Positions 6,410 to 45,792 of a stretch of DNA of 64,000 bases are shown here, one piece after another. The position numbers and the translations under genes are program-made. The notes beneath the pieces are model-generated. The model was given only the letters and a program-made list of their open reading frames with translations, had not been told where the DNA came from and searched no databases. How positions within the stretch are numbered: the first letter of the stretch is position 1; every line of letters starts with the position of its first letter. The stretch is from Escherichia coli. Lineage in GTDB: Bacteria; Pseudomonadota; Gammaproteobacteria; Enterobacterales; Enterobacteriaceae. The DNA lies in assembly GCF_001677475.2 (NCBI RefSeq), contig NZ_CP015229.1; one strand, written 5' to 3'.

Positions 6410-6610
6410 TGTAATATCCTTTCTCTTTCTTAGACAGTACCTTACGGCACTGGTGTTAATACCCGATCTTCTGCGCATCCTCGCGACTAATGACAACCCT
6501 AACCCAGCTCTATGTGGGTAAAGCCTCTCATTAGCCGCGCGAACCTCTGCAACGGAAGATCATTCATAGCAACAATACATTAGTTTCCAGTGAATTGCTG
6601 CCGTCAGCTT

Positions 6611-6640
6611 GAAAAAAGGGGCCACTCAGGCCCCCTTTTC
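6611..6640 (-). terminator. rpsO intrinsic terminator (hairpin also usable from the plus strand)
   Basis: ggggccactcaggcccc hairpin flanked by A-run on plus and T-run on minus, 16 nt downstream of the rpsO stop. Confidence 0.7.
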
Positions 6641-6655
6641 TGAAACTCGCAAGAA

Positions 6656-7021
<366 letters not shown>

Positions 7022-8468: not shown

Positions 8469-8505
8469 ATTTCAGGTGGAAGGGCTGTTCACGTTGGCCT
8501 GATAA

Positions 8506-8569
8506 GACGCGCCAGCGTCGCATCAGGCAATCCATGCCGGATGCGGCGTAAACGCCTTATCCCGCATGG
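8506..8569. repeat. REP/BIME-type palindromic units in the infB-rbfA spacer
   Basis: gcctgataagacgcgccagcgtcgcatcaggc and gccggatgcggcgtaaacgccttatcccgcatgg resemble E. coli REP consensus. Confidence 0.6.
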
Positions 8570-8582
8570 AACCCTAAAAACC

Positions 8583-11255
8583 TTAAGCGATGGTACGTTG
8601 GATTTCGATGATTTCGAATACTTCGATCACATCGCCAGTGCGGACGTCGTTGTAGTTCTTAACGCCGATACCACATTCCATACCGTTACGGACTTCGTTA
8701 ACGTCATCTTTGAAGCGGCGCAGGGACTCCAGCTCGCCTTCGTAGATAACCACGTTGTCGCGCAGAACGCGGATCGGGTTGTGACGTTTAACCACACCTT
8801 CGGTAACCATACAACCTGCGATGGCACCAAATTTCGGTGATTTGAATACGTCACGAACTTCCGCCAGACCGATAATCTGTTGTTTCAGTTCCGGAGACAG
8901 CATACCGCTCATTGCCGCTTTCACTTCGTCGATCAGGTTATAGATGACGGAGTAGTAACGCAGATCCAGGCTTTCCGCTTCAATCACTTTACGTGCAGAG
9001 GCATCAGCACGTACGTTGAAGCCAACCAGGATGGCGTTGGACGCCGCAGCCAGGGTAGCGTCGGTTTCGGTGATACCACCTACGCCAGAACCGATGATCT
9101 TCACTTTAACTTCGTCAGTAGACAGTTTCAGCAAGGAGTCGGAGATAGCTTCCACAGAACCCTGTACGTCTGCCTTCAGGACGATATTCACTTCGTGAAC
9201 TTCGCCTTCGGTCATGTTGGCGAACATGTTCTCGAGTTTAGATTTCTGCTGACGCGCCAGTTTAACTTCGCGGAATTTACCCTGACGATAGAGTGCAACT
9301 TCACGCGCTTTCTTCTCGTCACGTACAACGGTAACTTCATCACCCGCAGCCGGAACGCCGGACAGGCCGAGGATTTCCACCGGAATGGACGGACCCGCTT
9401 CCAGCACTTCCTGACCCAGTTCGTTACGCATCGCACGAACACGACCGTATTCGAAGCCACACAGAACGATATCGCCCTTGTGCAGAGTACCTTCACGTAC
9501 CAGAACGGTAGCAACCGGACCACGACCTTTATCGAGGAAGGATTCGATAACCGCACCGCTCGCCATGCCTTTACGTACCGCTTTCAGTTCCAGAACTTCC
9601 GCCTGCAGCAGGATAGCGTCCAGCAGCTCATCGATACCAGTACCCGCTTTCGCAGACACATGTACGAACTGGCTTTCACCGCCCCACTCTTCCGGCAGGA
9701 TGCCGTACTGGGAGAGTTCGTTCTTAACGCGATCCGGATCGGCTTCTGGTTTATCGATCTTGTTCACTGCAACGACCACCGGAACCTGCGCCGCTTTCGC
9801 GTGCTGGATTGCTTCGATGGTCTGCGGCATTACGCCGTCGTCGGCAGCAACAACCAGGACTACGATGTCCGTTGCCTGCGCACCACGAGCACGCATTGAA
9901 GTAAACGCGGCGTGCCCCGGGGTGTCCAGGAAGGTGATCATGCCGTTTTCAGTTTCAACGTGGTATGCACCAATGTGCTGGGTAATGCCGCCCGCTTCGC
10001 CAGAGGCCACTTTCGTTGAACGAATGTAGTCCAGCAGAGAGGTTTTACCGTGGTCAACGTGACCCATGATGGTCACAACCGGCGCGCGCGGTTCAGCCGC
10101 TGCCCCCGTGTCACGGTCGCTCATTACCGCTTCTTCCAGCTCGTTTTCACGACGCAGGATAACTTTGTGGCCCATCTCTTCAGCAACCAGCTGTGCGGTT
10201 TCCTGATCGATAACCTGGTTGATGGTTGCCATTGCGCCCAGTTTCATCATCGCTTTGATGACCTGAGAGCCTTTAACAGCCATCTTGTTCGCCAGTTCGC
10301 CAACGGTGATGGTTTCGCCGATCACAACGTCACGGTTAACGGCCTGAGCAGGCTTCTGGAAGCCTTGCTGCAGCGAAGAACCTTTACGTTTTCCGCCTTT
10401 ACCGCCACGTACTGCTGCGCGTGCTTCTTCACGATCAGCTTTTGATTCAGCGTGTTTGTTGCCTTTCTTCGGACGCGCAGCTTTCGCGTTACGACCACGG
10501 CCACGGCCGCCTTCGACTTCACGATCGCTTTCGTCTTCTGCCTGGCGAGCATGTTGAGAAGTAGTGACGTGATAATCGCTGGAATCTTCAGTCGGTTCCG
10601 CGTTATCAGTCCATTTGTTTTCTTCCGCCATACGACGTGCTTCTTCAGCAACGCGACGTGCTTCTTCTTCGAGTTTACGACGCGCTTCTTCTTCGGCTTT
10701 ACGCTTGAGCTCTGCAGCTTCCTGCTCACGGCGGGCTTTTTCAGCCTGGGCGTTTTTAGTCATATCGTCTTGTTGATTGCTCACTTTGTCTTTTTCCGCA
10801 GCTTCACGTTTCGCTTGTTCAGCAGCTTCACGCTTAGCTTGTTCTGCGGCCTCACGTTCAGCTTTTTGTTGCGCCTCGCGTTTAGCCGATTCTTCTGCCT
10901 CACGACGGGCTTGCTCTTCCGCTTCACGCTGCGCTTGCTCTTCCGCTGCAAGGCGTTCAGCCTCTTGCGGATCGCGTTTCACAAAGGTGCGTTTCTTGCG
11001 GACTTCGATTTGTACCGATTTGCTTTTTCCACCGGTACCAGGAATGTTAAGGGTGCTGCGTGTTTTACGTTGCAGCGTCAATTTGTCCGGGCCTGAATTT
11101 TTCTGATTCAGGTGGTCAATCAAAGTCTGTTTCTCTTGTGCGGACACAGAGTCGTCAGCAGACTTCCGGATACCTGCATCAGCAAATTGCTGTACCAGGC
11201 GTTCCACGGAGGTCTGTCGCTCTGCGGCCAGCGTTTTAATCGTTACATCTGTCAT
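8583..11255 (-). CDS. infB: Translation initiation factor IF-2 (890 aa, alpha form)
   Basis: Translation [31 protein letters not shown]... with G-domain ([21 protein letters not shown]); in-frame internal starts at codon 158 (GTG) and 165 (ATG) are present. Confidence 0.97.
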
Positions 11256-11279
11256 GCTGTTCCTTCCTGCTACAGTTTA

Positions 11280-12767
<1,488 letters not shown>

Positions 12768-13263: not shown

Positions 13264-13329
13264 TAAAAAAAGGGCCTAAAGCCCAGTTATTCTGTAGTCA
13301 GATAACAAAAAACCCCGATAAATCGGGGC
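13264..13329 (-). terminator. Two tandem hairpin/U-tract terminators downstream of metY
   Basis: Minus strand: gggctttaggccc + ttttttt (13264..13283) and ccccgatttatcgggg + tttttt (13305..13329). Confidence 0.6.
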
Positions 13330-13453
13330 TTTATATAACTGAACCCTATAACCGCAACTGCGGTCTGGAGCACTTTCCAGAAGGATTTTTTCAAATCCCA
13401 CTACGAAGGCCGAAGTCTTCACAGTATATTTGAAAAAGGACTCTAAGGGAAAG

Positions 13454-13530
<77 letters not shown>

Positions 13531-17312: not shown

Positions 17313-17399
17313 TGGTACCGAGGACGGGACTTGAACCCGTAAGCCCTATTGGGCACTACCACCTCAAGGTAGCGTGTCTACCAATTCCACCACCTCGGC
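17313..17399 (-). tRNA. leuU: tRNA-Leu (GAG anticodon, 87 nt)
   Basis: Reverse complement reads GCCGAGGTGGTGGAATTGGTAGACACGCTACCTTGAGGTGGTAGTGCCCAATAGGGCTTACGGGTTCAAGTCCCGTCCTCGGTACCA; long variable arm; immediately downstream of secG. Confidence 0.95.
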
Positions 17400-24048: not shown

Positions 24049-24092
24049 GCAAAAAAATACCGACCCGGGTACAAGTCCCAGGTCAGCTACAA
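24049..24092 (-). ncRNA. graL: greA leader terminated by an intrinsic terminator (GraL-like short leader RNA)
   Basis: Minus strand GACCUGGG-ACUUGUA-CCCGGGUC hairpin followed by GGUAUUUUUUU, about 40 nt downstream of the predicted promoter and upstream of the greA start codon; 5' end is inferred. Confidence 0.45.
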
Positions 24093-24099
24093 TTCACAT

Positions 24100-24127
24100 T
24101 TTGATAGTCATTTTACCCTGAAGTTCC
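24100..24127 (-). promoter_or_regulatory. Sigma-E-type promoter (GGAACTT-N16-TCAAA) overlapping a sigma-70 -10 (TAAAAT) upstream of greA
   Basis: Minus strand reads GGAACTT cagggtaaaatgacta TCAAA; a close match to the sigma-E consensus with 16-nt spacing. Confidence 0.55.
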
Positions 24128-24203
24128 CGAAGGGTCATCGTTTACTTTATAGGGCGTTGCGCCGTAGTATGACGGCTCGATTCCAGGTTGTTAGCGCGAG
24201 ATT

Positions 24204-45671: not shown

Positions 45672-45792
45672 GTGCGGCCTGAAAAACAGTGCTGTGCCCT
45701 TGTAACTCATCATAATAATTTACGGCGCAGCCAAGATTTCCCTGGTGTTGGCGCAGTATTCGCGCACCCCGGTCTAGCCGGGGTCATTTTTT
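45672..45792 (+). ncRNA. arcZ: ArcZ (SraH/RyhA) Hfq-dependent small RNA, about 121 nt
   Basis: GTGCGGCCTGAAAAACAGTGCTGTGCCCTTGTAACTCATCATAATAATTTACGGCGCAGCCAAGATTTCCCTGGTGTTGGCGCAGTATTCGCGCACCCCGGTCTAGCCGGGGTCATTTTTT matches my recollection of ArcZ; 3' terminator hairpin plus U-run overlaps the arcB stop codon. Confidence 0.85.

Follow-up and report, generated by a model that had tools for sequence, protein, structure and literature searches.

Production of several IF2 isoforms from the infB gene is a classic example of how one bacterial gene can give rise to several proteins. In the literature, the infB starts are given as codons 1, 158, and 165 (bioRxiv 10.1101/2021.11.18.469101), the last two being described as the starts of IF2-2 (IF2-beta) and IF2-3 (IF2-gamma), respectively (PMC3334882, PMC12297416). 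The short forms arising from these internal codons were shown in both K-12 and B strains (10.1101/520783, PMC3334882, PMC13245402). Madison et al. (2012, PMC3334882) demonstrated that the long and short forms are near-equimolar and that the short ones are abolished by point mutations: g474c eliminates IF2-2 and t494c eliminates IF2-3, and IF2-1 stays functional in the mutants for codons 158 and 165. In addition, N-terminal peptides were detected for AUG1, GUG158, and AUG165 (PMC13245402), and Ribo-RET peaks were found at the known infB internal site (bioRxiv 10.1101/520783). Domain I, which comprises 157 aa and is specific for IF2-alpha, binds NusA (PMC12297416), and IF2-beta loses phase separation (10.1101/2025.02.02.631968). 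According to PMC1780047, which cites Laursen et al. (2002), an internal in-frame start located between two IF2N domains leads to a short isoform.

The analysed window, a 64-kb stretch of an E. coli chromosome, contains the infB coding sequence at 8583..11255 (minus strand, as for all features below unless indicated otherwise). According to the ORF listing and translation, it consists of 890 codons plus a stop, and the 890-aa IF2 product is 100% identical to that of K-12 MG1655. The nucleotide sequence differs from K-12 infB at 34 positions, all of them synonymous and none within CDS nt 115-560. The Pfam domains of the product include two copies of IF2_N, IF2_assoc, GTP_EFTU, and IF-2, among others, and the flanking ORFs represent the gene order rimP-nusA-infB-rbfA-truB-rpsO-pnp, matching the K-12 synteny. 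With its IF2 domain architecture and nusA-infB-rbfA context the gene is an infB orthologue, a label that the annotation gives to this gene in 5,425 E. coli genomes. The primary start of IF2-alpha (IF2-1) is the ATG at 11253..11255, equal to the K-12 CDS start 3316014, and its Shine–Dalgarno (SD) sequence CAGGAAGGA occupies positions -14..-6 (11261..11269) with an anti-SD duplex of -6.5 kcal/mol, the best among all 44 in-frame start-type codons of infB. The segment coding for Domain I, found in IF2-alpha only, comprises codons 1-157 (10785..11255) and includes the N1 subdomain (codons 2-50); PDB entry 1ND9 matches IF2 residues 2-50.

An earlier note on this DNA pointed to two in-frame internal codons as the known starts of the shorter isoforms. 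Both were found where the note had placed them, in frame: the GTG of codon 158 (IF2-beta/IF2-2) at 10782..10784 and the ATG of codon 165 (IF2-gamma/IF2-3, also called beta') at 10761..10763. In the K-12 RefSeq annotation, three infB CDSs begin at codons 1, 158, and 165, the internal ones (YP_010283915.1 and YP_010283916.1) starting at 3315543 and 3315522, so the assignment agrees with the annotated CDS starts as well as with the published mutagenesis, Ribo-RET, and N-terminomics. The alignment with K-12 infB, proposed in the note as a check, showed that the internal GTG and ATG are retained and the surrounding sequence is identical. Taken alone, these two codons have no statistical weight because infB possesses 44 in-frame ATG/GTG/TTG codons, among them 10 neighbouring pairs not more than 7 codons apart; their significance arises from the identity of the sequence to K-12. 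By this identity, short IF2 isoforms are presumably produced from codons 158 and 165 in the present strain also. The observation is correct, but the internal starts of infB are already textbook biology.

The internal initiation region, which has the lowest synonymous entropy of the first 800 codons, extends from 32 nt 5' of GTG158 to +15 of ATG165 (10749..10816). It is intact, including at least 32 nt 5' of the GUG, being identical to K-12; it is A-rich (45% A) and predicted to be unpaired. When naked RNA was folded thermodynamically in 240-nt contexts, codon 165 ranked first and codon 158 second in predicted unpaired probability among the 44 in-frame start-type codons, and the region is predicted to be more accessible than its flanks in 72 of 73 species. 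The invariant GCGGAAA at -15..-9 of GTG158 (10793..10799), seven adjacent alignment columns without variation in 73 unique sequences, contains GGA as a weak SD-like element. A search for an SD ahead of the GTG, also suggested in the earlier note, did reveal such a match, but a weak one: the best anti-SD duplex of GUG158, CGGAA:CUCCU at -14..-10, reaches -3.5 kcal/mol, and that of AUG165 reaches -1.9 to -2.3 kcal/mol, varying with the upstream window scanned. Neither codon has a canonical SD, i.e., strong anti-SD pairing 5-9 nt upstream, and the contribution of SD-like pairing is uncertain because it is weak and located 10 nt away from the GUG. We infer that the internal site is a start of the weak-SD type that depends on accessibility.

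Several other elements were sought in this part of the gene. The local single-sequence fold around the internal start is not significant (z = -1.07), the species alignment gave no covarying helix there, and comparison with Rfam gave no match within infB. A conserved RNA structure was rejected since RNAalifold gave a weak consensus (-8.9) whose pairs fall almost exclusively on invariant coding positions, with no compensatory changes. The E. coli CCGCAG/CUGCGG hairpin has two pairs that are kept in only 59-71% of species. An internal promoter was discarded also, with no sigma-70-like site across 10500..11300 and terminator-like matches at the chance level. The long antisense ORFs (e.g., 10452..11096, plus strand) have no Pfam match and were rejected as genes; they are attributed to GAA/GCN-rich codons, which read free of stops in antisense.

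To compare codon usage at the internal starts, we used the 80 closest enterobacterial species (81 sequences). GTG158 is kept as GTG in 81/81 sequences, including Erwinia, Pantoea, and Chimaeribacter, and is among the only two codon-invariant columns out of 60 conserved Val columns. ATG165 is represented by ATG in 73 of the 81 sequences and is missing in four genera of this set, Trabulsiella, Yokenella, Mangrovibacter, and Atlantibacter; its absence from 8 sequences means that the gamma start is not a universal requirement. Within the first 800 codons, synonymous variation drops most deeply over codons 147-165: of the 772 windows of 15 codons, the lowest begins at codon 147, and its synonymous entropy is 0.186, the mean being 0.455 (sd 0.10). 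Codons 153-161 hold 6 of the 54 codons invariant in all species, GCG153 and GAA154 (81/81 sequences) being among the invariant ones. Within the species, 5,294 of the 5,425 complete E. coli genomes contain an exact copy of the 84 nt around the internal starts.

We consider it very likely that the locus is a standard E. coli infB with the known tandem (intracistronic) translation. On a single infB mRNA, ribosomes would begin at ATG1, preceded by a good SD, or some 470 nt further into the ORF, at GTG158 or ATG165. The first start would yield the full-length IF2-alpha of 890 aa, and the internal ones would yield IF2-beta (733 aa) and IF2-gamma (726 aa), both shortened at the N-terminus and devoid of Domain I. 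For the internal starts, the ribosome-binding region would represent approximately 70 nt of A-rich RNA with little predicted structure, bearing the weak SD-like GGA within GCGGAAA. As selection holds the synonymous sites fixed, this stretch would both code for protein and act as a start site. The 24-nt repeats upstream of it encode R-E-x-x-E-x-x-K/R units, and the upstream and downstream repeat zones together are predicted to form a long charged single alpha-helix tying the NusA-binding N1 to the rest of IF2.

The constraint on codons 147-165 might alternatively come mainly from another RNA feature (e.g., an RNase E target, an sRNA site, or a conserved helix), the start role being secondary. 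RNase E prefers A-rich single-stranded sequence, and the stretch is both A-rich and predicted to be unpaired. Tandem IF2 expression is reported to be better in RNase E-deficient cells, according to the title of reference 69 in PMC13245402. However, the invariant codons cover -15 to +12 around the GTG, which is the size of a ribosome-binding site, the third base of this GTG is invariant, and g474c abolishes IF2-2 (PMC3334882), and the searches revealed neither a covarying helix around the internal start nor an Rfam match within infB. We regard a mainly different RNA function as very unlikely, though some other overlapping feature could be partly responsible for the synonymous trough.

Upstream of the internal starts, codons 102-157 (10785..10952) form a tandem array of six to seven units of 24 nt (8 aa), supported by Tandem Repeats Finder (TRF), by the repeat register, and by shuffle tests. 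TRF detected two period-24 arrays, one at 10790..10864 with 3.1 copies and 82% matches and the other at 10891..10947. Amino-acid autocorrelation at lag 8 amounts to 0.69, compared with 0.20 for shuffled sequences (z = 8.9). At the DNA level, the identity at a 24-nt lag reaches 0.72, compared with 0.38 after codon shuffling (z = 8.0), and the identity of the units is 14-20/24 (58-83%). The earlier note had described three REAAEQAK copies directly upstream of the starts. The repeat is real and its location correct, but the exact motif occurs twice (codons 134-141 and 142-149), the third copy, REAAEKDK (codons 150-157), agrees in 6 of 8 residues, and the array is larger than claimed, its register extending further upstream to include the unit LAAEEQAQ. 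The two exact units differ at 5 of 24 nucleotides, all synonymously, and in other genera the variable positions are occupied by K or D; on these grounds, a recent DNA duplication was rejected as the origin of the exact pair, for which a point change is more likely than duplication or gene conversion. A second short repeat zone, present in all isoforms, lies 3' of the internal starts (10620..10703; TRF periods 24 and 21).

The upstream array is a coding VNTR: its 24-nt unit is a multiple of 3, and its copy number differs between strains. In addition to the 890-aa form, E. coli has IF2 length alleles of 898 aa (one unit more, 570 contigs), 882 aa (one unit less, 39 contigs), and 858 aa (four units less, 1 contig), the counts being of contigs in the protein collection. 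One extra unit was found in Phytobacter, Kosakonia, Mangrovibacter, and Atlantibacter. With a repeat-containing 206-nt query (10785..10990), identity reached 99% or more in 4,918 of the 5,425 genomes; this and the 58-83% identity of the units suggest that the copy-number changes may be rare events rather than high-frequency slippage of a contingency locus.

The possibility that this repeat is a cis-acting element required for internal initiation, for example by keeping the mRNA open or by pausing ribosomes, so that the repeat and the starts make one functional unit, has a very small probability in our estimation. It is favoured by the direct adjacency of the repeat and the starts, by the position of the last unit (codons 150-157) within the constrained region, where it bears GCGGAAA, and by the last units being intact in every natural copy-number variant. 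However, the del1 allele, deleted from -14 of ATG1 to -32 of GUG and therefore deprived of all units except for the last ~1.3, still expresses IF2-2 and IF2-3 (PMC3334882), so that the repeat beyond the last ~32 nt is dispensable for internal initiation. Moreover, units 1-5 show an average level of synonymous variation (0.37-0.54), and natural alleles are known that have one unit more, one less, or four less. Of all the units, only the last extends into the internal ribosome-binding region, and the repeat adjoins the internal starts because they sit at the Domain I/II boundary within the predicted helix.

This helix was obtained with AlphaFold2 as a model only: a single continuous charged alpha-helix of 118 residues, codons 96-213 (10617..10970), containing both repeat zones and both internal starts. 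With a 37-sequence alignment, block-mean pLDDT was 88-94 over residues 101-150 and 67-75 over residues 151-170, and pTM was 0.26. The repeat units follow the pattern R-E-A-x-E-x-A-K, with the oppositely charged R and E placed at i and i+4. Being E/R/K-rich, having a period of 8 rather than 7 with no heptad hydrophobic seam, and predicted as continuously helical, the segment would qualify as an ER/K-type single alpha-helix (SAH), and the model is consistent with the repeats being a single-helix spacer. IF2 is presumably listed in published SAH surveys; our literature search found no paper that presents IF2 as a single alpha-helix case. Elsewhere, the IF2 linker region was called flexible or disordered with some helicity (PMC12297416; 10.1101/2025.02.02.631968), and this region was treated as an IDR driving phase separation (10.1101/2025.02.02.631968).

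It is extremely unlikely that GTG158 and ATG165 are ordinary Val and Met codons which are in frame by chance and do not initiate translation. The commonness of in-frame start-type codons and of their close pairs, as well as the weakness of the SD match, agree with this suggestion; against it, the sequence is that of K-12, where codons 158 and 165 are annotated and experimentally verified starts, GTG158 is exact in all 81 sequences while other Val codons vary freely, and the synonymous trough is centred on the two codons. The historical alternative that the shorter forms result from proteolysis of IF2-alpha in a flexible linker, with which the published descriptions of flexibility or disorder (PMC12297416, 10.1101/2025.02.02.631968) and the drop of model confidence at residues 151-170 are compatible, is next to impossible and is already refuted in K-12, where point mutations in both codons remove the short forms with IF2-1 functional (PMC3334882) and initiation-arrested ribosomes map to the internal site (10.1101/520783).

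With tandem translation retained as the preferred reading of the starts, one can tentatively suggest, as a rather unlikely extension, that the unit copy number (858, 882, 890, or 898 aa in E. coli/Shigella and an extra unit in Phytobacter, Kosakonia, Mangrovibacter, and Atlantibacter) represents a natural “length dial”. In IF2-alpha, the NusA-binding N1 subdomain would be separated from the ribosome-binding body by a rigid single-helix spacer, whose length would change with the copy number by ~12 A per unit; the last unit would stay fixed owing to its second role as the internal ribosome-binding site. If true, this may lead to strain differences in transcription–translation coupling, cold adaptation, or condensate formation, and the natural length variants are ready alleles for testing the effect of linker length.

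The internal starts in this window bring no new biology and confirm the standard arrangement for this E. coli. Modestly beyond the known are three points: in the 80 closest species, synonymous constraint within the first 800 codons is strongest at the internal start region, the gamma start is lost in four genera, and natural E. coli populations are polymorphic for the length of the adjacent repeat.

The closest known system is the tandem translation of K-12 infB, with which the locus shares the protein, the nucleotides of the repeat and starts, the starts themselves (1, 158, and 165), and the operon context; the 34 synonymous differences lie elsewhere in the gene, and a functional difference is not expected. 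The infB genes of enterobacteria (Laursen et al. 2002, Genes Cells 7:901) and the alpha/beta forms of Bacillus subtilis IF2 are likewise internally initiated. The predicted helix resembles the ER/K-type SAH spacers, e.g., the charged helix of eIF3A (PMC10602382), in being E/R/K/A-rich, in the i and i+4 placement of R and E, in its predicted long and uninterrupted course, and in having a length that varies between taxa and strains. It differs from them in that the IF2 helix is a model prediction and that recent work regards the segment as an IDR (10.1101/2025.02.02.631968). More generally, clpB, mrcB, clpA, and speA of E. coli also provide at least two N-terminal proteoforms per ORF via internal initiation (10.1101/520783, PMC13245402). 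Their proteins are unrelated to IF2, and infB is distinguished from them by two closely spaced internal starts and by the near-equimolar amounts of its forms.

The window is E. coli chromosomal DNA. On its minus strand, infB (8583..11255) encodes an 890-aa product with a complete set of IF2 domains in Pfam (two IF2_N domains, IF2_assoc at residues 56-94, GTP_EFTU at 393-549, EF-G_D2, IF-2 and GTP_EFTU_D2). Flanking ORFs and Rfam matches follow the K-12 order metY-rimP-nusA-infB-rbfA-truB-rpsO-pnp. An 801-nt query across the repeat and internal starts had matches in 5,425 of 5,426 complete E. coli genomes; identity was 100% in many of them, and the matched features were annotated infB and nusA without exception; the infB 5' region had no match in one genome, one matching place on a plasmid, and up to five matching places in a single genome. 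The Rfam elements of the window are SraG (6468..6639, plus strand), the S15 leader (6869..6983, minus), the rimP leader (13265..13365, minus), two tRNAs (13457..13530 and 17316..17399, both minus), the greA leader (24052..24173, minus), ArcZ (45672..45779, plus) and, in the infB-rbfA spacer, naRNA4 (nucleoid-associated ncRNA 4; 8496..8566, minus, 77 bits); no Rfam family matched inside infB.

The two in-frame codons proposed in the earlier note as starts of the shorter IF2 isoforms, GTG158 (10784..10782; IF2-beta, or IF2-2) and ATG165 (10763..10761; IF2-gamma, or IF2-3), occur exactly at these positions. Alone they prove nothing; infB contains 44 in-frame ATG/GTG/TTG codons, with ten adjacent pairs no more than 7 codons apart. 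They gain weight from the agreement with K-12. The IF2 protein is identical to that of K-12 MG1655, and the genes differ at 34 positions, all synonymous and none within CDS nt 115-560, so that the repeat and internal-start region is DNA-identical and the internal codons are kept. The K-12 RefSeq record holds three infB CDSs (starts 3316014, 3315543 and 3315522) corresponding to codons 1, 158 and 165, and the same start codons are given in two papers (10.1101/2021.11.18.469101; PMC12297416), which bears out the reading of both codons as known starts. Ribo-RET yields specific peaks at the known internal site of infB (bioRxiv 10.1101/520783). Madison et al. (PMC3334882) demonstrated that IF2-2/3 expression survives a deletion (del1) whose ends lie 14 nt before the IF2-1 start and 32 nt before the IF2-2 start, which confines the required upstream sequence to at most 32 nt, made up of the final repeat unit and eight further bases. 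By its identity with K-12, the strain studied here is likewise expected to produce the isoforms.

The Shine-Dalgarno match ahead of GTG158 is weak: the best anti-SD duplex, CGGAA:CUCCU at -14..-10, reaches -3.5 kcal/mol, as compared with -6.5 kcal/mol for the primary start and -1.9 to -2.3 kcal/mol for ATG165, varying with the upstream window scanned. Among the 44 in-frame start-type codons, codon 165 ranks first (0.62) and codon 158 second (0.58) in predicted unpaired probability over -20..+14; the internal-start stretch contains 45% A versus 27% in the whole gene, and predicted openness is higher in the start region than in its flanks for 72 of 73 unique species sequences. No significant fold was found in the 181-nt context of the internal starts (z = -1.07), no compensatory changes in any helix around them, and no promoter-like site nearby. 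We suggest that the internal start probably depends on an accessible A-rich entry site in which a GGA makes a weak contact, and which would be held by selection on synonymous sites.

Conservation was analysed in a codon alignment of 81 sequences, the window plus the 80 enterobacterial loci listed at one genome per species (79 other taxa, including Citrobacter, Salmonella, Klebsiella, Enterobacter, Buttiauxella, Kosakonia, Erwinia, Pantoea and Chimaeribacter, and E. coli E69, CP089930.1). The E69 locus covers IF2 residues 1-246 and carries a Ser-to-Leu change turning the unit REAEESAK into REAEELAK. All 81 sequences have GTG at codon 158; GCG153, GAA154 and CAA161 are also invariant, and AAA157 and AGC159 are the sole codons wherever their residue is conserved (77/81 each). 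Across all species, 54 conserved residues use a single codon, six of them within codons 153-161, and among 60 Val-conserved columns only codons 85 and 158 do so. Codon 85 (GTC, 11001..11003, minus) is thus the sole other Val codon identical across all 80 species listed; several further invariant codons are grouped within codons 3-25 (11181..11249), adjoining the primary start. The lowest normalised synonymous entropy among 772 sliding 15-codon windows (0.186; mean 0.455, sd 0.10) belongs to the window starting at codon 147, and 11 usable codons drawn at random give a value this low with P ~0.0008. The constrained bases extend from about -15 to +12 relative to GTG158, the size of a ribosome-binding site, with GCGGAAA invariant at -15..-9 (10799..10793), and 5,294 of 5,425 E. 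coli genomes carry the 84 nt around the internal starts without a change.

ATG165 is less constrained than GTG158, being present in 73/81 sequences. At the position aligned to 10761..10763, Trabulsiella and Yokenella have AAA instead, Mangrovibacter has CAA, and Atlantibacter and a record labelled C. freundii M-21 have GCA (loci L051, L054, L081, L058, L062, L064, L074 and L078). Since GTG158 is kept in every locus that lost the gamma start, these genera probably make two isoforms only.

A tandem repeat lies directly upstream, as had been noticed from the sequence: TRF detects a period of 24 with 3.1 copies at 10790..10864 and another array at 10891..10947. The description REAAEQAK x3 holds in part, because two copies are exact, the third matches at 6/8 residues, and the array runs to six or seven units, not three. 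Codons 102-157 (10785..10952, minus) read LAAEEQAQ / REAEEQAR / REAEESAK / REAQQKAE / REAAEQAK / REAAEQAK / REAAEKDK, followed by V158. This periodicity is far above the composition expectation (lag-8 amino-acid identity 0.69 versus 0.20 in shuffles, z = 8.9; 24-nt lag identity 0.72 versus 0.38 in codon shuffles, z = 8.0). The DNA units are identical at 14-20 of 24 positions. Five synonymous differences in 24 positions argue against a recent duplication as the origin of the two exact units.

The copy number of the 24-nt unit (10785..10952, minus) varies within E. coli: strain BS74R-D gains one unit (898 aa), whereas E5 is one unit short (882 aa) and N68 four (858 aa). All these changes are in frame and leave the final units and the stretch from GTG to ATG untouched. 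In a large protein collection these alleles occur on 570 contigs (including Shigella), 39 contigs and one contig, respectively, so at least the 898-aa and 882-aa alleles are genuine population variants and not assembly errors. One extra unit is the norm in Phytobacter, Kosakonia, Mangrovibacter and Atlantibacter (loci L033, L058, L062, L064, L072-L076 and L078), where it is KRDAEERA/KREAEEKA-like and aligns to ~10857..10880. On the strand opposite the repeat zone there are long ORFs at 10452..11096 (plus, 214 aa) and 10777..11106 (plus, 109 aa); the 214-aa ORF, the one scanned, had no Pfam match, and the simplest explanation for both is that GAA/GCN-rich codons leave the antisense reading free of stops.

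In an AlphaFold2 model from 37 enterobacterial sequences, residues 96-213 are predicted to form a single uninterrupted helix, with block-mean pLDDT of 88-94 over 101-150, 67-75 over 151-170 and 81-84 beyond; the dip at 151-170 coincides with the 13-residue segment containing both internal starts. In each 8-residue unit the first residue is R and the fifth is E, so that opposite charges alternate at i/i+4. Together with the non-heptad period, this pattern in the sequence and predicted model points to an ER/K-type single alpha-helix rather than a coiled coil. A second short repeat zone (10620..10703, minus; periods 24 and 21) follows the internal starts and is therefore common to all three isoforms; the model places it within the same long helix. 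Between the N1 subdomain (residues 2-50; PDB 1ND9) and the repeat helix, the model gives a long two-stranded beta-hairpin overlying IF2_assoc (residues 58-92; 10980..11084, minus; strands 58-71 and 79-92; block-mean pLDDT 68-86). Since N1 lies upstream of the repeat helix and binds NusA (PMC12297416), the predicted helix would be the connector present in full only in IF2-alpha. The repeat region has been described as a flexible linker or IDR driving cold-induced phase separation, a property lost by the beta form (PMC12297416; 10.1101/2025.02.02.631968).

The relation between the repeat and the starts is positional: the starts mark the Domain I/II boundary within the predicted helix built from the repeats, and of the units only the last also belongs to the internal ribosome-binding site. 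According to PMC1780047, citing Laursen et al. 2002, the isoforms are conserved in Enterobacteriaceae and in B. subtilis. The observation is confirmed, and the evidence supports its interpretation: the feature corresponds to the textbook case of infB tandem translation in E. coli and is already part of the RefSeq annotation.
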